31,079 nucleotides of DNA from an uncultured Lentisphaeria bacterium. Its GTDB lineage: Bacteria; Verrucomicrobiota; Lentisphaeria; Victivallales; Victivallaceae. Shown piece by piece: positions 3,601 through 17,628 of this stretch. A program made the translations under genes and the position numbers. Numbering within the stretch: position 1 is the stretch's first letter; the number at the start of each line of letters is the position of its first letter. Below the pieces are notes generated by a model that saw only the letters and a list, made by a program, of their open reading frames with translations, did no database searches and was not told the DNA's origin. The DNA lies in assembly GCA_949298665.1 (NCBI GenBank), contig CASFXO010000097.1, positions 1-31,079 on the forward strand. The letters are read 5' to 3'.

Positions 3601-3638
3601 GTATGACATAAGGCAGTTTGGAACTTCGAGAAACAACT

Positions 3639-6176
3639 ATGAGTGTAAAATTATTCAACGTGGCTCCGCGCATTCCCGCCGAGCTGAAATTTCTGGAACG
3701 GCTTTCCTACAACATGTGGTGGTGCTGGCATCCGCTTGCCATCGAGCTGTTTGTCCGGATCAATCCGAATCTGTGGCGGGAGGTGGAAGGCAACAGCCGG
3801 CGCGTTCTGATGCAGGTATCCCAGAACCGGCTGGAGGAACTGGCCCGGGATCCCGCTTATCTGCGGCAGCTGCGCACCGTGCAGTCGGAGTTCGAACGGG
3901 CCATGCCGGAAAAGGAAAATTTCGCGGATCGGCGGATCGCCTATTTTTCGATGGAGTTCGGCATTCACGAAAGCGTGCGGATCTTTTCCGGCGGGCTGGG
4001 CGTATTGTCCGGGGACCATCTGAAAGCGGCGTCGGACATGAAACTGCCGCTGGTCGCGGTCGGACTGCTGTACCGGCAGGGCTATTTCCGGCAGATGCTG
4101 GACCGCAACGGCTGGCAGATCGAACGCTATCCCGAAAATGAAATCCATAACATGCCTCTGGTTCGCGCCCGGGATGCTCAGGGCCGGAGCATCACCATCA
4201 GCATCAAACTGATCGATCGGGACCTCTTCGCCGCGGTCTGGATTCTCTGGGTGGGCAACATTCCCCTGGTGCTGCTGGATACGGAAATTCCCCAGAATCC
4301 GCCGGAGCTGCGCGAAGTCACCTGGCGGCTGTACGGCGGCGACCGCCGCATGCGGCTGCATCAGGAACTGCTGCTCGGCATCGGCGGTTACAAGGCGCTG
4401 GTCGCGCTCGGCTGCACCCCGGCGGTCTGCCATATGAACGAAGGCCATGCGGCATTCATGTCGCTGGCCCGGCTGGAAGAACTCGTGCAGAAGGGGCTGG
4501 ACCCGGAAACCGCGCTGGAAATCGTGTGGCGCACCAATGTTTTCACGACCCATACGCCGGTTCCGGCGGGCAACGAGGTATTCGACATCGCGCTGGTACG
4601 GCCTTATCTCGAAACCTACGCCCGGAGTGTCCAGATGGATGTGGACCGCATCATCCGCTGGGGCGTGCCGATCAGCGAACGCGACCACAGCACCGAAATG
4701 TCCATGACGGTACTCGGGCTGCGCATGGCCAATTACAGCAACGGCGTCAGCCGTCTGCACGGAGAAGTGGCCCGGGAAATGTGGAAGATGCTCTGGCCGC
4801 AGCGGTCCGTGGCGGAAATTCCGATCGGGCATATTACGAACGGGGTACATATCCCGTCCTGGATTTCGCCCCGGATCCGGGTGATCTTCGACCGGTATCT
4901 GAATGCCCGCTGGTTGCAGAATCCGGACCCGGCGCAGCTTTGCCAGGCGGTATTCAACATTCCCGACGAGGAATTGTGGATGGCGCATGAGCTGTGCCGT
5001 CAGTCGATGATCCGCAAAGCCCGGCATGTGGTGCAGCACAGTTCCGCCTTTGCCGCCGATATCGGGCAGGGCAGCATCAACGGCAAGACGCTGCTGGACC
5101 CCGACGTGCTGACCATCGGTTTTGCACGGCGGTTCGCCACCTACAAGCGCGGCACGCTGCTGCTGCGTTATCCCGACCGGCTGGTGGCGCTGCTGAAAAA
5201 CAAACAGCATCCGGTTCAGTTCGTCTTTTCCGGCAAGGCGCATCCGGCCGACGAAGGCGGCAAGCGTCTGATTCAGGAACTGGTCCAGTTCGCCCGGCAA
5301 CATGGGGTGCAGGATCGCCTGGTGTTTCTGGAGGATTACGACATCGCGCTGGCCCGTTCGCTGGTGCAGGGGGTGGACGTCTGGCTCAATACGCCGCGGC
5401 GCCCGCAGGAAGCCAGCGGAACTTCCGGGATGAAGGCGGCGATCAACGGCGTGATCAACTGCAGCATTCTCGACGGCTGGTGGGCCGAGGCCTATACGCC
5501 GGAATGCGGCTGGGCCATTCCCAACAATGAAAATTACACCGATACCGAGGATGTCGACAATTACGAAGCGCAGGCGCTTTTCTGTCTGCTGGAAAACGAA
5601 ATCATTCCCTGCTTCTACGAACGGGGCGGCGGCGATCTGCCGCAGCGCTGGATCCGGCGGATGAAGGAGTCGATCGTCATGGCGCTCGGACACTTTTCCA
5701 GCGCCCGGATGGTGCGGGAATATGAGGAAAAATATTACCGTCCGGCCCGCGACGACTATCAGCGGCTGCTGGCGGACGACGCTGCGGAGGCCAAGGCGCT
5801 GGTGGAGCGGAAATGGCGAATGGTGAATAATTTCGGAAAACTTTACGTGGAGCGTCCGGAAATTTCGATGGTGCTGGACGACATTCATGTGGGGGACCGG
5901 TTCCGGATTTCCGTCAAAGCCGGGCTGGGCGAACTCCGGCCGGAGGAAGTCGAGGTGGAAACCTATTACGGCCAGGTCAATATTCACAACGAAATCGTTC
6001 GGGGAAAGGCGGAGCCGATGCAGCTGGCGGAAGACCTTGGCAACGGCAATTACCGGTATGAGTGCGAGCTGGTCTGCAATACCGCCGGTCGTTTCGGCCT
6101 GACGGCCCGGATTACGCCGAGCGGCCATGAATGGGACAACAGTGTTCCCGGTTTCATGTGCTGGCCGAAGGATTGA
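3639..6176 (+). CDS. glgP: Alpha-glucan (glycogen) phosphorylase, GT35
   Basis: AYFSMEFG, GGLGVLSGDHLK, HMNEGH, FTTHTPVPAG, GFARRFATYKR, GKAHPAD and EASGTSGMKA (PLP lysine codon at 5433-5435). ATG 3639. Confidence 0.96.
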   Translation: MSVKLFNVAPRIPAELKFLERLSYNMWWCWHPLAIELFVRINPNLWREVEGNSRRVLMQVSQNRLEELARDPAYLRQLRTVQSEFERAMPEKENFADRRIAYFSMEFGIHESVRIFSGGLGVLSGDHLKAASDMKLPLVAVGLLYRQGYFRQMLDRNGWQIERYPENEIHNMPLVRARDAQGRSITISIKLIDRDLFAAVWILWVGNIPLVLLDTEIPQNPPELREVTWRLYGGDRRMRLHQELLLGIGGYKALVALGCTPAVCHMNEGHAAFMSLARLEELVQKGLDPETALEIVWRTNVFTTHTPVPAGNEVFDIALVRPYLETYARSVQMDVDRIIRWGVPISERDHSTEMSMTVLGLRMANYSNGVSRLHGEVAREMWKMLWPQRSVAEIPIGHITNGVHIPSWISPRIRVIFDRYLNARWLQNPDPAQLCQAVFNIPDEELWMAHELCRQSMIRKARHVVQHSSAFAADIGQGSINGKTLLDPDVLTIGFARRFATYKRGTLLLRYPDRLVALLKNKQHPVQFVFSGKAHPADEGGKRLIQELVQFARQHGVQDRLVFLEDYDIALARSLVQGVDVWLNTPRRPQEASGTSGMKAAINGVINCSILDGWWAEAYTPECGWAIPNNENYTDTEDVDNYEAQALFCLLENEIIPCFYERGGGDLPQRWIRRMKESIVMALGHFSSARMVREYEEKYYRPARDDYQRLLADDAAEAKALVERKWRMVNNFGKLYVERPEISMVLDDIHVGDRFRISVKAGLGELRPEEVEVETYYGQVNIHNEIVRGKAEPMQLAEDLGNGNYRYECELVCNTAGRFGLTARITPSGHEWDNSVPGFMCWPKD

Positions 6177-6201
6177 GGTGCAACCGCAGACGGGGGCGTG
6201 C

Positions 6202-6219
6202 CGCCGGTCATGACCGGCG
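6202..6219. repeat. Perfect 18-bp palindrome between glgP and glgA
   Basis: CGCCGGTCATGACCGGCG equals its own reverse complement. Confidence 0.85.
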
Positions 6220-6258
6220 CGGCGGCAGGTTCCCGGCGGCGCGGAAAGGAGATGTCGA

Positions 6259-7773
6259 ATGGGAAAGTCGTCCAGGAAAAAACCGCGCATTCTGATCGTC
6301 ACACCGGAGATTACCTACCTGCCGGAAGGCATGGGCAATATGGCCAATGCCCTGAAAGCCAAGGCGGGAGGGCTGGCCGACGTGTCGGCATCGCTGGTGG
6401 CGGCCCTCTTCCGTCAGGGGGCGGATGTGCACGTGGCGCTGCCGCATTACCGGCGCATGTTTCACGTGGACGTCGGGAAGTTGATCAGCAACGAGCTGCG
6501 GGTTTATCTCAGCCATCTGTCCACGGGACGGGTGCATCTGGCGGAGGATCGGATTTTCTATTACCGGGACTCGGTCTACGGCAGTTACGCCGACGACAGT
6601 TTTCTGTCGGCGATGGCATTTCAGCGGGAGGTGCTGAACAACATCATTCCGCATGTGCGCCCGGACCTGATTCACTGCAACGACTGGATGACGGGGCTGA
6701 TTCCGGCGATGGGGCGCCGGATGGGGATTCCCTGTCTGTTTACCGTGCACAATATCCATACGCAGAAAAGCACGCTGGACCGCATCGAAGACCGCGGGAT
6801 CGACGCGGCGGAGTTCTGGAATTATCTCTATTACGAGCGGATTCCCTATAATTATGAGGAAAGCCGGTCCACCAATCCGGTTGATTTTCTGACCAGCGGG
6901 ATCTTCGCGGCGCATTTCATCAACACGGTCAGTCCGACGTTTCTGCGGGAGATCGTGGAGGGACGGCACGATTTCATCCCGGACCAGATCCGTCGGGAGA
7001 TTGCGGCCAAGGCGCATGCCGGCTGCGCCTGCGGGATTCTCAATGCTCCGGATGAATCTCTGGATCCGGAAAAGGACCCCTACCTGAAGCATCGTTACAC
7101 GCCGGAAACCGTGCTGGAAGGCAAGGCGGCGAACAAGGCACTGCTGCAACAGCGCCTGGGGTTGGAGGAGCGTCCGGACGCGCCGATTTTCTTCTGGCCG
7201 TCGCGGCTGGATCCGCTGCAGAAGGGGTGCCAGCTGCTGGCGGAAATTCTCTTCGACGTGGTGAGCAAGTACTATTCCCGGCATCTGCAGATCGCCATTG
7301 TGGCGAACGGCAGTTATCAGTCGGTTTTTCAGCAGATCGCCGCGTTTCACGATCTGCGCGGCCGGGTTGTGGTGCGGGATTTCGACGAGGAGTTGTCGCA
7401 TCTGGGATTTGCGGGTTCGGACTTCGTACTGGTGCCGTCGCGGTTCGAACCGTGCGGGCTGCCGCAGATGAACGGGCAGTATTACGGGACGTTGCCGGTG
7501 GTGCACGATACCGGTGGGCTGCACGACACGGTGGAACCGTTGAACCTGGCGGCGGCGACCGGGAACGGATTCCGTTTCGAAACCTACGATTCCGGTGGGT
7601 TGTTCTGGGCGATGGATGAGGCGATGCGCTTCTACGACCTGCCGGAAGAGGCCAAACTGCCGGTTCTGCAGCGGGTGATGCGGCAGGCTCGGGAACGGTT
7701 CAACCACGACGTGACGGCGGAGGCCTATATCCGGATTTACGAATCGATGCTGGATCGTCCGTTGCTGCCGTGA
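6259..7773 (+). CDS. glgA: Glycogen synthase, GT5
   Basis: KAGGLADV (K-X-G-G donor-binding motif, 6361-6375), IHCNDW, FTVHNI, GILN, PSRFEPCGLPQM, TGGLHDTV. SD AAGGAG upstream. Confidence 0.93.
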   Translation: MGKSSRKKPRILIVTPEITYLPEGMGNMANALKAKAGGLADVSASLVAALFRQGADVHVALPHYRRMFHVDVGKLISNELRVYLSHLSTGRVHLAEDRIFYYRDSVYGSYADDSFLSAMAFQREVLNNIIPHVRPDLIHCNDWMTGLIPAMGRRMGIPCLFTVHNIHTQKSTLDRIEDRGIDAAEFWNYLYYERIPYNYEESRSTNPVDFLTSGIFAAHFINTVSPTFLREIVEGRHDFIPDQIRREIAAKAHAGCACGILNAPDESLDPEKDPYLKHRYTPETVLEGKAANKALLQQRLGLEERPDAPIFFWPSRLDPLQKGCQLLAEILFDVVSKYYSRHLQIAIVANGSYQSVFQQIAAFHDLRGRVVVRDFDEELSHLGFAGSDFVLVPSRFEPCGLPQMNGQYYGTLPVVHDTGGLHDTVEPLNLAAATGNGFRFETYDSGGLFWAMDEAMRFYDLPEEAKLPVLQRVMRQARERFNHDVTAEAYIRIYESMLDRPLLP

Positions 7774-7781
7774 GGGATGGC

Positions 7782-9803
7782 ATGAAATTCCCGACGCGCG
7801 ACAATCGACCGCAGCCTTTCGGACGGGATCCGTATCTGGCGCCTTATGCCGGCGACCTGGAACGGCGACAACTGGCGGCGGCCGCCGCCCGGCGGCGACT
7901 GTTGCGCGGGGGACCGGAGACGCTGGCGGCATTCGCTTCCGGGCACGAGTATTACGGACTGCATTTCCGGGAGGGGGAATGGGTGTTCCGGGAGTGGGCG
8001 CCGCATGCCTGCGCGGTCACGCTGATCGGGGAGATGTCCGGCTGGAAGGCTTTGCCGGCGTTTGCCCTGTACCGGTTGAGTGACCGGGGTGACTGGGAAA
8101 TTCGGCTGAGCGCGGAGCGGTTGTGGCACGGCATGCATTACCGGCTGCTGATGGAGTGGCCGGGGGGAAGGGGGGAACGGCTGCCGAGTTATGCGCGTTA
8201 CGTGGTGCAGGACGAGCGGAGCGGAATCTTTTCCGCGCGGGTCTGGCGGCCGGAGCGGCCTTATCGGTTCCGGTACGAACCTCCGGAACCGTTTCCGGCG
8301 CCGCTGATTTACGAGTCTCATGTCGGCATGGCGCAGGAACGGGCCGGGGTGGGGACGTTCCGCGAATACCGGGAGACGGTACTTCCGCGCATTGCCCGGT
8401 CCGGTTACAATACGGTGCAGTTGATGGCGATCATGGGGCATCCGTATTACGGATCGTTCGGTTATCATGTGGCGAACTTTTTTTCCATAGCGGGGCGTTT
8501 CGGAACGCCGGACGATTTCCGGGAGCTGGTGGATGCGGCGCATGGGCTGGGGCTGCGGGTGATCATGGATCTGGTGCATTCCCACGCGGTGCGCAACGAG
8601 GTGGAAGGACTGGGACGGTTCGACGGAGAGCGCAGCACCTATTTTCATGCCGGAGAACGGGGGGAGCACCGGGCATGGGATTCGCTGTGCTTCGATTACG
8701 GCAAGACGGAGGTGTTGCATTTTCTGCTTTCCAACTGTCGTTTCTGGCTGGACGAATACCGGGTGGACGGTTACCGGTTCGACGGGGTAACCAGCATGCT
8801 GTACCGGCATCACGGATTGGGGCGGGCGTTTTCCGGGTACGCCGACTATTTCGGCGGCGAGGTGGATGAGGAGGCGCTGACGTATCTGACGCTGGCCAAC
8901 GAGGTGATTCACGCGGTGCGGCCCGACGCCGTGACCGTGGCGGAGGACGTCAGCGGCATGCCCGGACTGGCGGTGCCGATCCGGGAAGGTGGCGCCGGTT
9001 TCGACTACCGCATGGCGATGGGGGTGACCGACATGTGGTTCAAGCTGTTCGATCTGCCGGACGAGACGTGGAACATGGGTTACATGTACCACGAATTGAC
9101 CAACCGGCGGCCGGATGAGCGGACGGTCAGTTATGTGGAGTGTCACGATCAGGCCATTGTCGGCGGACAGACGGCGATTTTCCGTCTGGCGGGGGCGGCG
9201 ATGTACAATGCCATGCGCCGCGATTCCGGAGACAGCCGGGTGGACCGGGCGGTGGCGCTGCATAAGCTGACGCGGCTGGCGACCGCGGCGGCGGCGGGAC
9301 ACGGCTATTTGAATTTCATGGGGAATGAATTCGGGCATCCGGAGTGGATCGATTTTCCGCGGGAGGGGAACGGATGGTCGTATAACTACGCCCGGCGGCA
9401 GTGGTCGCTGGCGGAGGATGAGACGCTGCGATACGGGCAACTGGAGGCGTTTGACCGGGCGATGCTGGCGCTGCTGCGGGGAAAAGGGAATTTTTATGAT
9501 TGCGCGCCGCAGCGGATGCGGTGTGATGAAGAGCGGAAGATTCTGGTGTTTGAACGCGCGGGGTGTTTTTTCGTGTTTAACTTTCATCCGACGGATTCGG
9601 CGGCGGATTACGCCCTGGAATTTCCGCCGGGAGCTTATCGGATTGTTTTGAACAGCGACGCGGCCGCTTTCGGCGGGTTTGACCGGATTGACTGCGGCAT
9701 GACTTATGAAACCGCCGCGGTGCCGGATGGGAAGGGGAGGTCCCACCAGGCGCTGCGGCTGTATCTGCCGTGCCGGACCGCGCTGGTTTTGCAGAAGGCG
9801 TGA
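7782..9803 (+). CDS. glgB: 1,4-alpha-glucan branching enzyme, GH13_8 (eukaryote/Bacteroidota type)
   Basis: FREWAP, YESHVGM, SFGYHV, YRFDGVTSMLY (nucleophile Asp at 8781-8783), VAEDVSGMP, ECHDQ and YLNFMGNEFGHPEWIDFPREGN. ATG 7782 follows SD GAGGGA; GTG 7770 overlapping the glgA stop is an alternative start. Confidence 0.94.
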   Translation: MKFPTRDNRPQPFGRDPYLAPYAGDLERRQLAAAAARRRLLRGGPETLAAFASGHEYYGLHFREGEWVFREWAPHACAVTLIGEMSGWKALPAFALYRLSDRGDWEIRLSAERLWHGMHYRLLMEWPGGRGERLPSYARYVVQDERSGIFSARVWRPERPYRFRYEPPEPFPAPLIYESHVGMAQERAGVGTFREYRETVLPRIARSGYNTVQLMAIMGHPYYGSFGYHVANFFSIAGRFGTPDDFRELVDAAHGLGLRVIMDLVHSHAVRNEVEGLGRFDGERSTYFHAGERGEHRAWDSLCFDYGKTEVLHFLLSNCRFWLDEYRVDGYRFDGVTSMLYRHHGLGRAFSGYADYFGGEVDEEALTYLTLANEVIHAVRPDAVTVAEDVSGMPGLAVPIREGGAGFDYRMAMGVTDMWFKLFDLPDETWNMGYMYHELTNRRPDERTVSYVECHDQAIVGGQTAIFRLAGAAMYNAMRRDSGDSRVDRAVALHKLTRLATAAAAGHGYLNFMGNEFGHPEWIDFPREGNGWSYNYARRQWSLAEDETLRYGQLEAFDRAMLALLRGKGNFYDCAPQRMRCDEERKILVFERAGCFFVFNFHPTDSAADYALEFPPGAYRIVLNSDAAAFGGFDRIDCGMTYETAAVPDGKGRSHQALRLYLPCRTALVLQKA

Positions 9804-9825: not shown

Positions 9826-11136
9826 ATGAGTGAGACGATTCACTACGAATTGAAACGGGAAGTGCCGGTGACGGCGGAAGCGGATGTGGTGGTGTGCGGC
9901 GCCGGACCGGGAGGATTTACCGCGGCGGTGACGGCGGCGCGCAACGGAGCGGACGTCGTGTTGATTGAGCGTTACGGTTTTCCCGGCGGGATGGCGTCGG
10001 TGGGCGAGGTGACCCCGTTCATGTGCAGTCATTCGCACGGTCTGCCGCTGGACCGGCCGCTTTACGGGGAATGGATCGATGCCATGCGCCGGTACCTGCC
10101 GGGCAAGGTGGCGCCGCACGCCGAAAACCGGGTGGAGAACGACGAAGAGCGCATGATTTCCAAAAATCTGGCGATGCTGGCGGTGGAGGACCTCTGTCAG
10201 GCGGCCGGGGTACGGCTGATGTACCACCATACGCTGTTTGACGTGCAGCGCGAGGGGGAACGGATTACCGGGGTGATTCTGTCCGGCAAGGACGGATTGA
10301 GCGCGGTGCGCGGCAAGGTGTTTGTGGACGGAACCGGCGACGGGGACCTGGCGGCGCTGGCGGGAGTCCCGTTTGAATACGGCGATGAGGAAGGCAACTG
10401 CCAGCCGATGACGCTGTGTTTCAAATTGAGCGGTGTGGACCGGTCCCGGATGCCGTCGCGGGCGGAGGTCAATGCCCTGTACGACCGGGCGAAGGCCGCC
10501 GGAAAAATCCGGTGCCTGCGGGAAAACGTATTGATGTTTGATGATCTGGAGCCGGATGTGATGCATTTCAACACCACGCGGGTGGTGCTGAAGAGCGCGT
10601 TGAACGCGCGGGAGCTGTCGGAGGCGGAAATCGATGCCCGGCGGCAGCTGCGGGAATATCTGGCGTTTCTGCGGGAATATGTACCGGGGTTCGAACGGGC
10701 CGCGGTGCATTCGATCGCGCATCATATCGGGGTGCGGGAATCGCGCCGGATTCGGGGACGGCGTTATTTGACGGTGGCGGCGTTCGAGCGGGCGGAGAAA
10801 TTTCCGGATGCGATCGCCCGGGTGAGTTATGACGTGGACATTCACAATCCGAAGGGCACCGGAACGGTGATCCGGCGGCTGCCGCCGGACGACTGGTATG
10901 AAATTCCTTATGGCTGTATTGTGGCGGAAGGGTGCGACAATCTGCTGATCGGGAGCCGCTGCATCTCCGTGGACCATACGCTGCACAGTTCCATGCGGGT
11001 GATGCCGCCGGTCTGTTCGATCGGGCAGGCTGCGGGAATGGCCGCGGCGATGGCGCTGGCGGCGGGGACGACGCCGGCGGCGCTGGACGGTGTGGCGGTG
11101 CGGGAGAAACTGCGCGCCTTCGGGGCATATTTGTAA
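9826..11136 (+). CDS. FAD-dependent oxidoreductase (PF12831-like), substrate unknown
   Basis: DVVVCGAGPGG Rossmann motif, FVDGTGDGDLA, RESRR, YEIPYGC, RCISVD, GQAAGMAAA. SD AGGAGG precedes ATG 9826. Confidence 0.9.
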   Translation: MSETIHYELKREVPVTAEADVVVCGAGPGGFTAAVTAARNGADVVLIERYGFPGGMASVGEVTPFMCSHSHGLPLDRPLYGEWIDAMRRYLPGKVAPHAENRVENDEERMISKNLAMLAVEDLCQAAGVRLMYHHTLFDVQREGERITGVILSGKDGLSAVRGKVFVDGTGDGDLAALAGVPFEYGDEEGNCQPMTLCFKLSGVDRSRMPSRAEVNALYDRAKAAGKIRCLRENVLMFDDLEPDVMHFNTTRVVLKSALNARELSEAEIDARRQLREYLAFLREYVPGFERAAVHSIAHHIGVRESRRIRGRRYLTVAAFERAEKFPDAIARVSYDVDIHNPKGTGTVIRRLPPDDWYEIPYGCIVAEGCDNLLIGSRCISVDHTLHSSMRVMPPVCSIGQAAGMAAAMALAAGTTPAALDGVAVREKLRAFGAYL

Positions 11137-11138
11137 AC

Positions 11139-13193
11139 ATGACGGATTCCGGCATCCGCCGGTGTCGCGCAGAGAGCGGCGCCGGCGCCGGGAAGTTACG
11201 GGTGGGACGGTTCGGGGAGCGAAGAGACGGGGTGGAGGGGTTTTACGCGATACTGCTGGCTGTGCTGGAGATGACGTTCGTATTCGTCGGACTCGGGTTG
11301 CTGCACAGTCAGCGCAAGGTGATCGGGTCGGCGTCGTTTTATCTGTCGCTGGGACTGCTGTTTTTGTTCGCACAGCTGGTGTGTGCGGCCGATTTCCGGG
11401 CGGTGCTGGTGGGGACGCTGGATTTCCAGATCGGACCGACCGTGCTGTTTCTGCCGTACCTGGCGGCGTTGCTGCTGGTGTACATTACGGAGGGGACGCT
11501 GGCGGCGCAGCGACTGATCATCGGATCGCTGGTGCTTTTCGGGCTGTATCTGTATCTGGGGGAAATCACCCGGCTGCAATGTTCCTGGACCGGGTATTCG
11601 ATTTCTTCCGGACTGTCGGCGGAGGCGCTGGATTTTCTCCTGCGCGAAAGCCGCCGGTCGATGGTGGCGCTGGTGCTGGCGCATCTGCTGGATCTGTTCA
11701 TGCTGCCGATCATCTTCACCCGGCTGAAGACGGCACACTGCCGGTTGTTTTTCTGCGTGCTGGGGGCGCTGGCCTTCACCCAGATCGCGGACTCGCTGCT
11801 GTACGTGACGGTGCTGTACTGGGATCGGCCGAATCAGTTCGAGTTTCTGACCGGAGCCTTTCTGGCCCGTTCGGCGGCCACTCTGTGGCTGAGCATGCTG
11901 CTGACGGTTTATCTGCGGAAGATTGAAAGCGAAGCCGAGCCGCATGGCCGCAGTACGCTGGATATCGTCTTCGCCTTTTTCGGTGGTTATGGGCGTTCGA
12001 AGTTGCTGGAAGAGAGCCTGCGGGAATGGGAAGGGCGCTACCAGCAGGTGCTGCGCAACGCCAGCGAATTGATCGTGCTGCTCAATCCCGAGGGACGGGT
12101 GCTGGACGCGAATCTGGCGGCGGCCCGGATTCTGCATATGGAATCACCGTCGGAGATGATCGGGATGAAGTTTTTCCAGTGGATGCGCAATCCGGACGGG
12201 ACGCTGTTCCGCCCGGCGCTTTCCGGGGACGGGGAACATCTGTCGCCGGAGAAAGGGGTGTCGCGCTTTCAGGTGCTGCTGGGGGGGCCGCGCCCGGAAC
12301 GGGAACGGCTGATTTCCTGTTCGCTGTCGTTGCAGCGGCTGAAGGCGCGCCCGGTACTGGTGCTGATCGGTCGCGATGTGACGGAGGAGGCGCGGCTGGA
12401 AAAGGAACGCGAACGCCTGAGCGAACAGCTGGCGCACGCCCAGCGGATTGAATCCCTGGGGCAGCTCGCGGGGGGGATCGCGCACGATTTCAACAACCAC
12501 ATTCACGCGATTCTCGGACACGTGGACGTGATCAACTACATGCATGCCCCGAGCGACCCGGAGGTGGCGCGTCATCTGGGCAAGATCGCGGAAATCGCCG
12601 AGCAGTCCGGGCGACTCACCGGTCAGTTGCTGGGGTTCGCCCGCAAGGGAAAATATCAGATCGCCGATCTGGATCTGCGGGAATTGACGGAAACCTGCAT
12701 CGGCATGATGCTGCCTAAAAGTCAGACCGGACTGGATATCGAATTTCAACCTCCGGCGGTGCCGATGATCGTGCGCGGGGACAGAATTCAATTGCAGCAG
12801 GTGCTGCTGAATCTGATGCTCAACGCGCGTGACGCCACCGAGCGGAATGCCGGGCGCCGCCTGCTGGAGCTGGTGTTGTGCGAGGCGGCTGAGTGCGGTG
12901 TCCGGATCGAGCCGCCGCCGGAGATGCGCAAAAATCCGCCGCTGCGGGATTTCTATTGCATCATCGTGCGGGACAACGGGCACGGGATGGACGCCGATAC
13001 GCTGCGGAAGGTGTTCGAACCGTTTTTCACCACCAAGCCGGTGGGGCAGGGCACCGGGATGGGGCTGGCGATGGTGTACGGTACCGTGACCAGTCATCAC
13101 GGCTGGGTGCAGGTATCCAGCCGTCCGGGCGAAGGGACGGCTTTCTACGTGTTTCTGCCGAAGGCGGCGGCGGAAGGCGAAGCCCAGGGGTAA
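11139..13193 (+). CDS. Sensor histidine kinase: multi-TM VUT/YhhQ-like domain, PAS, HisKA, HATPase (no receiver domain)
   Basis: H-box [11 protein letters not shown] (His at 12483-12485), N-box [37 protein letters not shown]-like segment ([18 protein letters not shown]). Hydrophobic N-terminal domain. Start uncertain: ATG 11139 or GTG 11232. Confidence 0.92.
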
Positions 13194-13200
13194 AAACCGT

Positions 13201-14019
13201 TCAGTGTTTTGTGTCACCGGCGCGGTAGCGGCCCGGAGAAATGCCTTTTTTACGTTTGAACAGGGCCGCGAAATGGTATTCGCCGGCAAATCCCAGTGCA
13301 TCCGCAATTTCCTTGAGGCCGCGATTGGAATGTCGCAGCAGCTGCATGGCCACCTCCAGTTTCCGATCGAGCAGATATTGACGCGGCGTGCTGCCGAAAT
13401 CCTTTCGGAAAATCCGGATGGCCTGAGCCGGGGAACGGCGGATGGCCCGCCCCAGTTCCGCCGCCGTCGGCGCGGGGGTGTGCAGGTGTTGCTCCAGAAG
13501 TTCCCGCATGGCCAGTCCCGCCGGAGTGTGGCCGGACGGGATCTGCTCCGCCAGCTGAACGGCGGCCGTCGCCGTAATCTCCATCAACAGCCGGGGCATG
13601 ATCCGGGTATGGGCGTCGTGGGGATGGCGGTGCAGTTCCCGCAGTCCTTCCCGGAAGAGTTCCGGCCTCCGGAAATGATGAACCAGAGTCCGTCGCCGCA
13701 GCCGGTGGAGATCGAACAGCGCGTCGGCCAGCGGCCCGCAGACATTGAACCAGTATTTGATCCATGGATTTTCCGCGTCGGAGTGGTAATGATTTTCCGT
13801 ATGGGAAGGGATCAGATACAGATCGCCGGTTTCAGGCCGGGTGATTTCGCCGTCGATTTCCACGACGCCGCGTCCGGAGGCGACGTATTCGAGGACACAG
13901 GTGGGGGTGTTCCGGCGGCTGATCCGATAGCTGCCGTCACAGTAACTGATCCCGGCCAGCTCCAGGCGCAACGGCCAGTCGGCAGGCGGCGGGGGCGGAA
14001 TGAAGATTTCTTCCTGCAT
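13201..14019 (-). CDS. AraC-family transcriptional regulator (cupin plus double HTH)
   Basis: N-terminal cupin (LEYVASGRG...GDLYLIP...H.YHSD..NPW.KYW). C-terminal FRKDFGSTPRQY, LKEIADALGF...HF..LFKRKKGISPGRYR. ATG 14019 preferred. Confidence 0.93.
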   Translation of the reverse strand: MQEEIFIPPPPPADWPLRLELAGISYCDGSYRISRRNTPTCVLEYVASGRGVVEIDGEITRPETGDLYLIPSHTENHYHSDAENPWIKYWFNVCGPLADALFDLHRLRRRTLVHHFRRPELFREGLRELHRHPHDAHTRIMPRLLMEITATAAVQLAEQIPSGHTPAGLAMRELLEQHLHTPAPTAAELGRAIRRSPAQAIRIFRKDFGSTPRQYLLDRKLEVAMQLLRHSNRGLKEIADALGFAGEYHFAALFKRKKGISPGRYRAGDTKH

Positions 14020-14053
14020 GTTCGTTTTGTATATTTTTTTGCGTATTTTATCA

Positions 14054-14082
14054 TTCAAAAAGCGGCAATTCTTTATTATAAT
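14054..14082 (+). promoter_or_regulatory. Putative sigma70 promoter for the DUF4965 gene
   Basis: TTCAAA (14054-14059), 17 nt, TATAAT (14077-14082). Confidence 0.6.
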
Positions 14083-14102
14083 ATATAAAAACTTTTTTTC
14101 AA
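14075..14102 (-). promoter_or_regulatory. Putative sigma70 promoter for the AraC gene
   Basis: Minus strand TTGAAA (14102-14097), 16 nt, TATAAT (14080-14075). Confidence 0.55.
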
Positions 14103-14194: not shown

Positions 14195-16216
14195 ATGATG
14201 ATGACACCCTTCCGTCCACCCGCCGTACCGTTGTTGACGGTGGATCCCTATTTCAGCGTCTGGTCGATGGCGGATCGACTGTTTGACAACGATCCCTGCC
14301 ACTGGAGCGGCGTGCCCAATGCGTTGAATCTGATGCTGCGCATCGACGGCGTCCCGTGGCGCGTGATGGGATTGCTGAAGCCGCAGCTGCGCCACAGCCG
14401 CAACTGCAATACGCAACAGCCGATGGGGATGGAGCAGCGGGCGCTGGAAGTCCGGCCGGTGACGACGCATTATGAATTTTACGCCGCCGGAGTGCGGCTG
14501 ACGCTGGATTTCCGGACGCCGTTTCTGCCGGACGACCGGCAGGCGATGATGCGTCCGGTCTCCTATGTGGAATGGACGGTGGCGGCCGGGGACGGGCGGA
14601 AACACCGGGTGGAACTGTATTTCGACGTATCGGCGGAGCTGTGCGTCAATGATGGGACCGAGGCGGTGGACGGCCGGCGCGAGAACATCGGTGGACGACC
14701 GGCGCTCTCCTTCGGCAACCGGGAACAGCGGCCGTTGTGGCGTTCCGGCGACGACGTTCGGATCGACTGGGGACGGATCTGGCTGAACGCTCCGGCGGAA
14801 AGTAGGGCTGTGATCGGTACGGCGGAGTTGCGTCGCCGTTTTGCCGCCGGTGAGGATTGGCCGGAGGCGGATGAACTGCCGGGGACGGTACCGGTGGCGC
14901 AGACGCTGCCGGTGATGGCCTGTCGTCAGGATTTCGGTCTGGTCGATGGAAAGGAGCGGAGCGCCTTTGCAGTGGTGGCTTACGATGACGTATGGTCGGT
15001 GGAATATTTCGGCACCCGGCTGGCGGCGGCCTGGCGCCGGGAGGAACCGGATTTCCGGCGGATGCTGGAGGCGGCGACGGCGGAGTACGAAGGTCTTGCC
15101 GCAAGCTGCGACCGCCTGGACGCGGAACTGACGGCCGAGGCGGAAGCGATCGGGGGAAGGAAATATGCCGCAATCTGCGCGCTGGCCTGGCGTCAGGCGC
15201 TTGCCGCACACAAAATGGTTTACGATGAAAACGGAGAACTGTTGTTTTTCTCCAAGGAGAACTTCAGCGGCGGTTTCATCGGCACGGTGGATGTGAGTTA
15301 TCCCTCCATGCCGCTCTTTCTGCGCTTCTGTCCGGAACTGGTGCGGGGGCTGATGCGACCGATTTTCCGTTATGCCTCAAGTCCGGACTGGCAGTACGAA
15401 TTCGCGCCGCACGACGTCGGGCGTTATCCGCTGGCCAACGGTCAGTTGTACGGAGACAACCAGCTGGAATATCAGATGCCGGTGGAGGAATGCGGCAACA
15501 TGCTGCTGATGGCCGGGGCGGTGGCCCGGGCCGAACCCGATACGGAATTCACGGCGGAAGAGTGGCGGCTGCTGCGGCGTTGGGCGACTTACCTGTCGCG
15601 GACCGGTCTGGAATTGGAACGGCAGTTGTGCACCGACGATTTTGCCGGGCATCTGGCGGGGAATGCCAATCTGGCGATCAAGGGGATCCTCGGCATCGGC
15701 GCTTTTGCGCAGCTGTGTGAAAAACGGGGAGAGCCTGAGGACGCGGCAACTTTCCTTGCCCGGGCCCGGGAACTGGCGCGGGAATGGCTGGTGCGGGCGG
15801 CGGGCGACGGCCATACCGTGCTGGCTTTCGGCGCGGCGGACAGCTGGAGTCTCAAATACAATCTGGTCTGGGACCGGCTGCTGGGCTTGAATCTGTTTCC
15901 GGAGGAACTGGCCGCGGCGGAAGTGCGGTCGTATCTGGGGCGGATTCTGCGTTACGGCGTGCCGCTGGACAACCGGAAAGCCTACACCAAGGCCGACTGG
16001 CTGGTCTGGGTGGCGTCGCTGGCGCGGGATCGGGCTGATTTCGAACGCCTGATTGCGCCGTTGTACCGGTTTCTGGAGGAAACGTCGAGCCGGATTCCGT
16101 TCGGCGACTGGTACGGCGTGACCGACGGTCTGGAACAGGGGTTCCGGGCGCGTTCGGTGGTGAGCGGCGTCTTCCTGCCGTTTCTGTCGCGGGAAGGGAG
16201 CGGTTTCGGCGCCTGA
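14195..16216 (+). CDS. DUF4965/DUF5127/DUF1793 'glutaminase A-like' protein, probably a glycoside-hydrolase-fold enzyme
   Basis: RPPAVPL...DPYFSVWS, FFSKE, GTVDV.YP, FAPHDVGRYP.ANGQ.Y, MPVEECGNML, QLCTDDFAG, LKYNL.WD, YTKADW. SD AAGGAG upstream. No signal peptide evident. Confidence 0.85.
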   Translation: MMMTPFRPPAVPLLTVDPYFSVWSMADRLFDNDPCHWSGVPNALNLMLRIDGVPWRVMGLLKPQLRHSRNCNTQQPMGMEQRALEVRPVTTHYEFYAAGVRLTLDFRTPFLPDDRQAMMRPVSYVEWTVAAGDGRKHRVELYFDVSAELCVNDGTEAVDGRRENIGGRPALSFGNREQRPLWRSGDDVRIDWGRIWLNAPAESRAVIGTAELRRRFAAGEDWPEADELPGTVPVAQTLPVMACRQDFGLVDGKERSAFAVVAYDDVWSVEYFGTRLAAAWRREEPDFRRMLEAATAEYEGLAASCDRLDAELTAEAEAIGGRKYAAICALAWRQALAAHKMVYDENGELLFFSKENFSGGFIGTVDVSYPSMPLFLRFCPELVRGLMRPIFRYASSPDWQYEFAPHDVGRYPLANGQLYGDNQLEYQMPVEECGNMLLMAGAVARAEPDTEFTAEEWRLLRRWATYLSRTGLELERQLCTDDFAGHLAGNANLAIKGILGIGAFAQLCEKRGEPEDAATFLARARELAREWLVRAAGDGHTVLAFGAADSWSLKYNLVWDRLLGLNLFPEELAAAEVRSYLGRILRYGVPLDNRKAYTKADWLVWVASLARDRADFERLIAPLYRFLEETSSRIPFGDWYGVTDGLEQGFRARSVVSGVFLPFLSREGSGFGA

Positions 16217-16323: not shown

Positions 16324-17628
16324 ATGTTGTTTCAACGGGAAATCCCCATTCGCGACACCTATGACGTCTGCGTGGTCGGCGGCGGTCCGGCCGGGGTGGC
16401 GGCGGCGGTCGTCGCCGCGCGGCAGGGGGCGCGGGTGTTTCTGGCGGAGGCGAACGGCTGCCTGGGGGGGATGGGAACGGCCGGCGGGGTGCCGATGTAC
16501 ATGACGTTCGGGAACGGGGTGGACTTCTGTGCGGACGGTTTCGGGCGTGAAGTGCGCGACCGGCACGCCGCCGAAGGGGTGATTCACGGCAATCCCGATT
16601 TCATCAACATCGAACGGCTCAAGCGGATTTACGACGACCTGCTGGAAGGCGCGGGCGTGGAGTTTTCGCTGATGACCGAACTCATTGCGGCGGAAACGGC
16701 GGACGGCGGGATCACCGCGGCGGTGTTTCACGCCAAGAGCGGTCTCTTCGCCGTCGGCGCGCGGGTGTTTGTGGACGGCACGGGGGACGGCGACCTGGCG
16801 GCTTACGCCGGGAACCGGACGGAAAAAGGCGACGAAAACGGCGCGGTGATGCCGTCCACGCTCTGTTCCGGCTGGGCCGGGATCGACTGGGAACGGTTCC
16901 GGGCGTCCGGCGACAAGCCGCGGGAGATTCTGTTCAAGGCGTTCGAGGACGGGATTTTCCGTCACAACGACCCGCACCACACCGGCATCAATCCGACCGG
17001 GAACCACCTCGGCGGCGGCAATATGGGGCACCTCTTCGGCCTGGATCCGCTGGATGAGAAGTCGCTGACCGCCGGTCTGGTGGAGGGGCGGCGGCAGATG
17101 GTGGAATTCCAGCGCTATTACCGGGAGTACATCACCGGATACGAGCAGGTGGAGCTGACCTTTACCGCTGCTCTGCCGGGGATTCGGGAATCGCGGCGGG
17201 TGGTCGGGGATTACGTGCTCGATCTGGACGATTACAAGGCGCGGCGGGTCTTTGACGATGAAATCGGCCGCTATTGTTACGGCATCGACATTCACCCCGC
17301 GTCCACCTCGGCGGCGGATCAGGAGGAATTCAAGCGTTTGAATGTCGGCATGCATTATGACCGCGGCGAGAGCTACGGTATTCCCTACCGGTGTTTGGTG
17401 GCGGCGGACTGCCGGAATCTGCTGGTGGCGGGCCGCTGCATCAGCTGCGACCGTTACGTGCAGGCGTCGATCCGGGTGATGCCGGGCTGTTACATTACGG
17501 GACAGGCCGCGGGCATGGCCGCCGCCCTGGCCGCCGGAAACGACGGCGACGTTCGGACCGTTGCCGTCGGCGAACTCCAGCGGAAGCTGAAGAAAATGGG
17601 GGCGTTCCTGCCCAACTGCCGGGGATGA
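16324..17628 (+). CDS. FAD-dependent oxidoreductase (PF12831-like), paralog of 9826..11136
   Basis: DVCVVGGGPAG, FVDGTGDGDLA, RESRR, YGIPYRC, RCISCD, GQAAGMAAA. SD AAGGAG upstream. Confidence 0.9.
   Translation: MLFQREIPIRDTYDVCVVGGGPAGVAAAVVAARQGARVFLAEANGCLGGMGTAGGVPMYMTFGNGVDFCADGFGREVRDRHAAEGVIHGNPDFINIERLKRIYDDLLEGAGVEFSLMTELIAAETADGGITAAVFHAKSGLFAVGARVFVDGTGDGDLAAYAGNRTEKGDENGAVMPSTLCSGWAGIDWERFRASGDKPREILFKAFEDGIFRHNDPHHTGINPTGNHLGGGNMGHLFGLDPLDEKSLTAGLVEGRRQMVEFQRYYREYITGYEQVELTFTAALPGIRESRRVVGDYVLDLDDYKARRVFDDEIGRYCYGIDIHPASTSAADQEEFKRLNVGMHYDRGESYGIPYRCLVAADCRNLLVAGRCISCDRYVQASIRVMPGCYITGQAAGMAAALAAGNDGDVRTVAVGELQRKLKKMGAFLPNCRG

Follow-up and report, generated by a model that had tools for sequence, protein, structure and literature searches.

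PF20973 is a curated Pfam family of sensors ("Vitamin uptake-like sensor", VUPS), whose domain, according to an exhaustive search of distant relatives, is fused in different proteins to HisKA, HisKA_3, GGDEF, PAS, GAF, and REC domains. In CbrA, an SLC5/SSS domain is fused to a histidine kinase; this transporter domain has 13 transmembrane (TM) helices and is reported to retain transport. The Vut_1/YhhQ proteins (QPTR; PF02592, COG1738, TC 2.A.88) are queuosine-precursor transporters and stand-alone proteins of about 220–250 residues. The member from E. coli, YhhQ, has six TM helices and a C-terminus whose cytoplasmic location was shown experimentally; TCDB groups the VUT proteins with the ECF-type vitamin binders (PMC5372724). 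In the present work, we analysed a sensor histidine kinase gene lying on a stretch of 31,079 nucleotides from an uncultured Lentisphaeria bacterium (assembly GCA_949298665.1, contig CASFXO010000097.1; hereafter, the window), the membrane domain of which is related both to VUPS and to Vut_1/YhhQ.

The kinase shares with CbrA an input module descended from a solute transporter fold; the two differ in that the SLC5 fold is unrelated to the VUT/ECF-S-like bundle and in that several conserved transporter residues have been lost in the kinase. Compared with Vut_1/YhhQ, it has a homologous TM2–TM6 region and, as its kinase portion requires, a cytoplasmic C-terminus; however, its input domain has seven TM helices instead of six and is fused to a cytoplasmic kinase of 420 residues.

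The kinase as a member of the VUPS family

The kinase is almost certainly a divergent member of the already curated VUPS family. The match to PF20973 spans residues 21–228 (nt 11292–11915) and positions 4–206 of the 206 of the profile, with a score of 62.9 bits (66.2 for the domain alone; E = 4e-17) against a cut-off of 27, and of 66.4 bits in the genome-level search. As in other VUPS proteins, the match is full-length and an N-terminal multi-TM domain precedes cytoplasmic signalling domains. Moreover, the residues conserved in the family (G32, G41, L81, Y84, D154, D187, and Y227, each with an occurrence of 81% or more among 52 diverse VUPS domains) are all present in the kinase. Its divergence emerges from the score, the other VUPS proteins scanned reaching 118–177 bits. 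Its ortholog group is specific to the Lentisphaerota, and the VUPS-PAS-HisKA-HATPase order is fixed within it. The scan of the kinase against NCBIfam retrieved only generic kinase models, all of them far under their cut-offs.

The members of the family found elsewhere in the same phylum are either VUPS-HisKA_3 kinases or proteins in which VUPS is followed by a short tail without Pfam assignment. In other lineages of the phylum, VUPS proteins of 330–350 residues carry a C-terminal tail of about 110 residues without any Pfam match (L003:1147-2175, L005:1402-2451, L011:1156-2175, and L012:1453-2448). VUPS proteins lacking a PAS domain also exist (P0178, P0181, P0182, and L008). In P0104, a metagenomic protein of 564 residues, a VUPS domain (61% identity over 72% of the query) is joined to FeoB_C and Gate domains, which may represent either a genuine fusion or a chimera produced by gene calling. 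A first-pass annotation of this DNA, made from the letters and their translations, had described the architecture as one not known to be characterised; the design is not new, since the very name of PF20973 already states the likeness to transporters, and the family embeds the domain in proteins with many signalling outputs.

Concerning the gene itself (Table 1), the GTG start at position 11232 is supported by the fact that one identical public protein of 653 residues and about 100 orthologs share the same start position; the ortholog from the same genus is 94% identical. The PAS, HisKA, and HATPase_c domains are all in frame with the VUPS domain, and the Pfam order confirmed what had been annotated in this respect; the span previously assigned to the membrane domain (11232–11930) was also close to the one found here (11232–11936). 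The HisKA match scores 23.5 bits, under the Pfam cut-off of 26.9, and 27.5 bits, above the cut-off, in the genome search. H418 sits in an invariant AHDFNN motif, and the kinase motifs are invariant in 47 orthologs: the N box lies at 527, the DxGxG (G1) motif at 581, the F box at 595, and the GxGxG (G2) motif at 607, with N527, N531, D581, G583, G585, G607, G609, and G611 as the invariant residues of HATPase_c. Judging from these motifs, the kinase core appears intact, and the protein is predicted to be an active class I (HisKA-type) histidine kinase.

No receiver domain was found on the contig of the window, nor next to any of the orthologs inspected, and the kinase is therefore an orphan class I sensor histidine kinase. 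In the genome, which is 78% complete, the search retrieved three REC and five HisKA proteins, forming two adjacent pairs and leaving one receiver unpaired. The latter, truncated at the end of its contig (G000:C117:7467-8461; L033:1968-2960), is a sigma-54 activator of the NtrC type and might be a candidate partner of the kinase.

Origin of the membrane domain from the VUT fold

As had been supposed in the first-pass annotation, the input domain and the Vut_1/YhhQ transporters are genuinely, if distantly, homologous. A profile of 52 diverse VUPS sequences was compared by hhalign with 11 true Vut_1 proteins from the same phylum, which also served as the reference set for the mapping of residues; residues 57–235 of the kinase aligned with positions 41–218 of Vut with a probability of 97.5%. 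The likeness is well beyond chance, both in the match to VUPS (E = 4e-17) and in that of VUPS to Vut_1 (E = 7e-12). The profile of close orthologs alone gave a probability of 41.7%, limited to the C-terminal half. The profile check against PF02592, which the same annotation had proposed, was only partly in its favour: the remote homology emerged from hhalign, but the membrane domain of the kinase on its own scored 18.4 bits (21.2 in the genome search), below the gathering cut-off of 27.2. Several orthologs of the kinase pass this cut-off unaided, with 43.9, 40.9, and 40.0 bits. In addition, a language-model atlas places the domain beside clusters bearing VUPS and Vut_1.

The structural comparison agrees with this picture. 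The AlphaFold2 (AF2) model of the membrane domain, built from the alignment of the orthologs, is a seven-helix bundle (pLDDT 83.5, pTM 0.80), with helices at residues 2–26, 33–53, 67–87, 89–118, 130–167, 172–195, and 202–234, a short beta-hairpin at residues 56–66, and nearly no extramembrane loops. The topology would be N-out and C-in. The best fold matches of the model, retrieved with Foldseek, are phage Vut-like proteins (TM-score 0.59–0.76): in BFVD, a collection of predicted viral structures, the top match was a protein of 207 residues (E = 7e-5, TM-score 0.65/0.76), and a phage "Putative vitamin uptake transporter" was also retrieved (E = 2e-3). No match with E ≤ 0.001 was obtained against the Protein Data Bank (PDB), where the best matches, all weak, were the ECF S components RibU 3p5n and 5kc0 (target-normalised TM-score 0.48–0.55, E 0.6–1.5). 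This resemblance is not significant, the sequences are not detectably similar, and the genome context of the kinase lacks an ECF energising module. A sequence search of the PDB chains with the membrane domain retrieved adiponectin alone (E = 0.09), a chance match.

The three motif matches that had been drawn by eye between the kinase and Vut_1 were reproduced, as pairings, by the profile-profile alignment: residues 66–97 align with TM2 and the ARR motif of Vut_1, residues 141–166 with TM4 and the following K, and residues 181–196 with the "Q..D[ST]" helix. Within the first of them, however, the Asp is absent, being replaced by L81, and the following Glu corresponds to I85. The number of additional helices had been set at two; compared with a full-length, six-TM Vut_1 there is only one. 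In the global hhalign alignment, helix 1 pairs with TM1 of the transporter and helix 2 is left unpaired, and for this reason the VUPS domain can be described as the six-TM VUT fold plus one helix; the Pfam model of Vut_1 begins after TM1. The idea of a complete YhhQ as the input domain is therefore not borne out, given the seventh helix and the absence of several residues conserved in the Vut_1 reference set.

These residues were mapped onto the kinase from the positions at least 90% conserved among the 11 Vut_1 proteins. D64, E68, R150, R155, S159, and T160 of Vut_1 (that is, the Asp/Glu pair of TM2, the two loop Arg, and the Ser-Thr) correspond to L81, I85, C170, C175, A179, and L180 of the kinase, respectively, and the positions 81 and 85 are hydrophobic in nearly all VUPS proteins. 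G71 (G88 in the kinase), D167 of TM5 (D187), three aromatic positions, and one Lys/Arg have been retained, so that the two families have Gly, Asp, and aromatic positions in common. Such a pattern would fit a remodelled transporter site.

The domain does score to a known sensor family, one of the two findings that the first-pass annotation had named as speaking jointly against its proposal; the other, the lack of similarity to Vut_1, was not observed. On the whole, the guess at remote homology, namely a transporter turned sensor, proved correct; the design being already in a curated catalogue, it does not represent a new class.

Possible mode of signalling and alternative explanations

In the full-length AF2 model, helix 7 is followed by a short amphipathic helix (243–249) and by a helix (253–276) leading into the PAS domain, whose PAS-like beta-sheet lies at 280–382; two long helices, 384–437 (carrying H418) and 443–471, form the dimerisation and phospho-acceptor domain (DHp). 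The linker residues F249, G251, Y253, and L259 are invariant in the orthologs. The best explanation, which we regard as reasonably probable, is that of an orphan class I kinase whose VUPS input derives from the VUT fold and senses without transporting. The seven-TM bundle would have evolved from the six-TM VUT/YhhQ fold through the addition of one helix on the N-terminal side and the replacement of several conserved polar residues; having ceased to transport, it would respond, as a receptor within the membrane, either to a small molecule or to a state of the membrane itself. The signal might be read by the polar residues conserved in VUPS and placed inside the helices (Y84, D154, D187, and Y227), and the resulting conformational change might pass from helix 7 through the amphipathic linker 243–249 to the PAS domain and then, along the long signalling helix, to DHp, where it would set the autophosphorylation of H418. 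The phosphoryl group would then pass to a response regulator encoded away from the kinase; the NtrC-type activator is the one receiver that was found unpaired. Candidate ligands can be shortlisted from the origin of the fold in carriers of vitamins and queuosine precursors.

Some points weigh against this explanation. The literature search found no paper on VUPS or PF20973, and no ligand, transport, or phosphorylation data for any VUPS protein; moreover, the PDB holds no YhhQ structure that would define a binding site, and a common pocket formed by Y84, D154, D187, and Y227 is putative. The Vut_1 residues termed invariant were drawn from just 11 proteins of one phylum, and COG1738 has no universally conserved residue according to the YhhQ paper (PMC5372724); because of the small, one-phylum reference set and of the lack of a universal residue, the loss of the Vut_1 residues is suggestive, and not a proof, that transport is gone. 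Finally, the partner is a guess in a genome of this completeness, which encodes two other orphan kinases.

In principle, the kinase might also be a transceptor, in which VUPS still binds and imports a micronutrient of the VUT type, be it preQ0, preQ1, queuine, or another, and signals its flux or occupancy to the kinase; a candidate transceptor, sensing a nucleobase- or vitamin-like molecule, had been proposed in the first-pass annotation. The true homology to Vut_1/YhhQ over TM2–TM6 and the retention of D187, the Asp of the "Q..D[ST]" helix, speak for it. Moreover, no separate Vut_1 gene was found in the recovered part of the genome, nor in the sampled genomes of its family, and in the sampled genomes of two families of the order (f1 and f2) the VUPS kinase is the sole Vut-like protein. 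On the other hand, the polar residues of Vut_1 listed above have given way to L, I, C, C, A, and L, and the added seventh helix alters the N-terminal topology. Furthermore, the kinase locus lacks a queuosine context: with Rfam, neither the window nor the upstream 500 nt yielded a riboswitch, of the preQ1 type or any other, and the Pfam analysis of the flanking genes revealed no queuosine genes among its neighbours. The genome encodes QueC and TGT, and the de novo route to preQ0 is therefore present at least in part. Nothing here points to queuosine precursors as the ligand of the VUPS kinase, and we consider the transceptor highly unlikely. As for TGT, its match (G000:C170:2475-3530) was reported with one internal TGA, and those in G006 and G064 likewise with one stop; probably, the match extends past the end of the gene.

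A different possibility is that the bundle reads the state of the membrane or of the envelope and that the kinase is tied in its function to the quality control system of the protein arginine kinase, McsA/McsB. According to the genome searches for VUPS and mcsB, 14 out of the 26 kinase-type orthologs sampled in the class come immediately after mcsB, with both genes on one strand. The adjacency occurs in nine out of ten genomes of f2, in all three of f3, and in two genera of f1; it is absent from the genus of the window and from two sister genera. In four out of the six ortholog contigs inspected, the gap between the two genes ranges from -8 to +122 nt; a UVR/McsA-like gene precedes mcsB in three of these four, and the contig of P0073 has mcsB only. 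The near lack of extramembrane loops in the AF2 model is also in favour of a sensor of this kind. However, the link is broken in the window and in its genus, where the kinase is preceded by glgP-glgA-glgB and by the gene for a flavin adenine dinucleotide (FAD)-dependent oxidoreductase; mcsB was not found in the recovered 78% of this genome, and it lies on another contig in the genome of the same genus. In addition, mcsB is present in 97 out of 100 genomes of the phylum with or without the kinase, and the adjacency of genes is no proof of a common function. Among the orthologs not adjoining mcsB, tblastn revealed no McsA or McsB within the fetched flanks. The mcsAB link is probably the older arrangement, lost here. 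As an account of what the kinase does, stress sensing appears rather unlikely, even if it deserves some weight.

The membrane domain could, alternatively, be an anchor or a dimerisation device only, the cytoplasmic PAS being the real sensor. The PAS domain is placed between the membrane domain and DHp, and the binding of cofactors or ligands is common among PAS domains. Nevertheless, in the 96 full-length orthologs conservation is lowest in the PAS (mean identity 0.32; entropy 2.18 bits), compared with 0.55 for the membrane domain, 0.53 for the ATPase domain, and 0.63 for the linker. Since the membrane domain equals the ATPase domain in conservation, far exceeds the PAS, and has invariant polar residues inside its helices, it should be more than an anchor; the same membrane domain has, moreover, been reused with many outputs, some of them in the proteins without PAS mentioned above. 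A role as a mere anchor is thus improbable.

The most far-reaching scenario combines several of these elements: VUPS would be a working binder or carrier of a micronutrient (a 7-deazaguanine, a nucleobase, or a vitamin-like molecule), its signal would reach the NtrC-type regulator, and the system would be wired to McsA/McsB in most Victivallales. If true, a Gram-negative lineage would connect the sensing of nutrients and His-Asp signalling with proteostasis based on phospho-arginine, a link not described before; in our opinion, this scenario is very improbable. Sensing without transport by a VUPS domain derived from the VUT fold remains the explanation that we favour, and the persistent mcsA-mcsB-kinase order of the related Victivallales, absent from the window, offers a second testable lead.

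Gene neighbourhood of the kinase

The features analysed in the window, and the loci of related genomes in which the kinase follows mcsB, are reported in Table 1.

Table 1. Position of the kinase gene, of its domains, and of the adjoining genes in the window, and of the mcsB-kinase loci in related genomes
Feature	Position	Strand	Evidence and remarks
FAD-dependent oxidoreductase gene (PF12831)	9826-11136	+	Pfam; between glgB and the kinase, 95 nt upstream of the kinase
VUPS-PAS-HisKA-HATPase_c sensor histidine kinase gene	11232-13193	+	653 residues, GTG start; translation and Pfam
VUPS input domain, seven TM helices, residues 1-235	11232-11936	+	PF20973, AF2, hhalign to Vut_1
Conserved juxtamembrane linker, residues 236-268	11937-12035	+	Ortholog identity, full-length AF2
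Cytoplasmic PAS domain, residues 269-388	12036-12395	+	PAS_4 29.2 bits, PAS_8 23.9 bits
DHp/HisKA dimerisation and phospho-acceptor domain, residues 389-475	12396-12656	+	HisKA residues 409-472; H418 codon 12483-12485
HATPase_c catalytic domain, residues 516-645	12777-13166	+	PF02518 77.5 bits; N, G1, F, and G2 boxes
AraC-family regulator gene, convergent	13201-14058	-	HTH_18, AraC_binding, HTH_AraC; stop 8 nt past the kinase stop
mcsA-like (UVR)/mcsB, then kinase	L027:6334-9950		Other Victivallales/Lentisphaerota genomes
mcsA-like (UVR)/mcsB, then kinase	L029:4932-7932		Other Victivallales/Lentisphaerota genomes
mcsA-like (UVR)/mcsB, then kinase	L030:4277-7935		Other Victivallales/Lentisphaerota genomes
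mcsA-like (UVR)/mcsB, then kinase	L031:4134-7965		Other Victivallales/Lentisphaerota genomes

As the start of the FAD-dependent oxidoreductase gene, we took the Met matching residue 1 of the same-genus ortholog in the alignment. Upstream of this gene, a row of glycogen genes occupies positions 3618–9803 of the window on the same strand and comprises a GlgP-like phosphorylase with DUF3417, a starch/glycogen synthase, and a branching enzyme. The arrangement of glgB, FAD oxidoreductase, and kinase is shared with the same-genus genome G022, and the AraC neighbour is present both in that genome and in the contig of P0003. In the contig of a close relative (L026), the kinase begins 8 nt after glgB; by comparison, the FAD oxidoreductase gene has been inserted at that point in the window. 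Probing 11 ortholog loci with the neighbours of the window by tblastn revealed that the glycogen-FAD oxidoreductase-kinase-AraC-GtaA order is common only to the genome of the same genus, and the glycogen neighbourhood was thus rejected as a conserved functional link.

The scan for consensus promoters and terminators between the FAD oxidoreductase gene and the kinase gave nothing informative. An open reading frame on the plus strand, at 13204–14088, has no Pfam match and was discarded as a shadow of the minus-strand AraC gene. Two paralogous FAD oxidoreductases of the PF12831 type (9826–11136 and 16324–17628) flank the kinase gene, the AraC gene, and a GtaA-like gene (14195–16216). Lastly, in another lineage (L032:7926-8642) a gene coding for 238 residues, with a weak match to FlmR_OhkR_N (PF12640), overlaps the kinase gene by 4 nt and may encode a partner protein of the kinase in that lineage.

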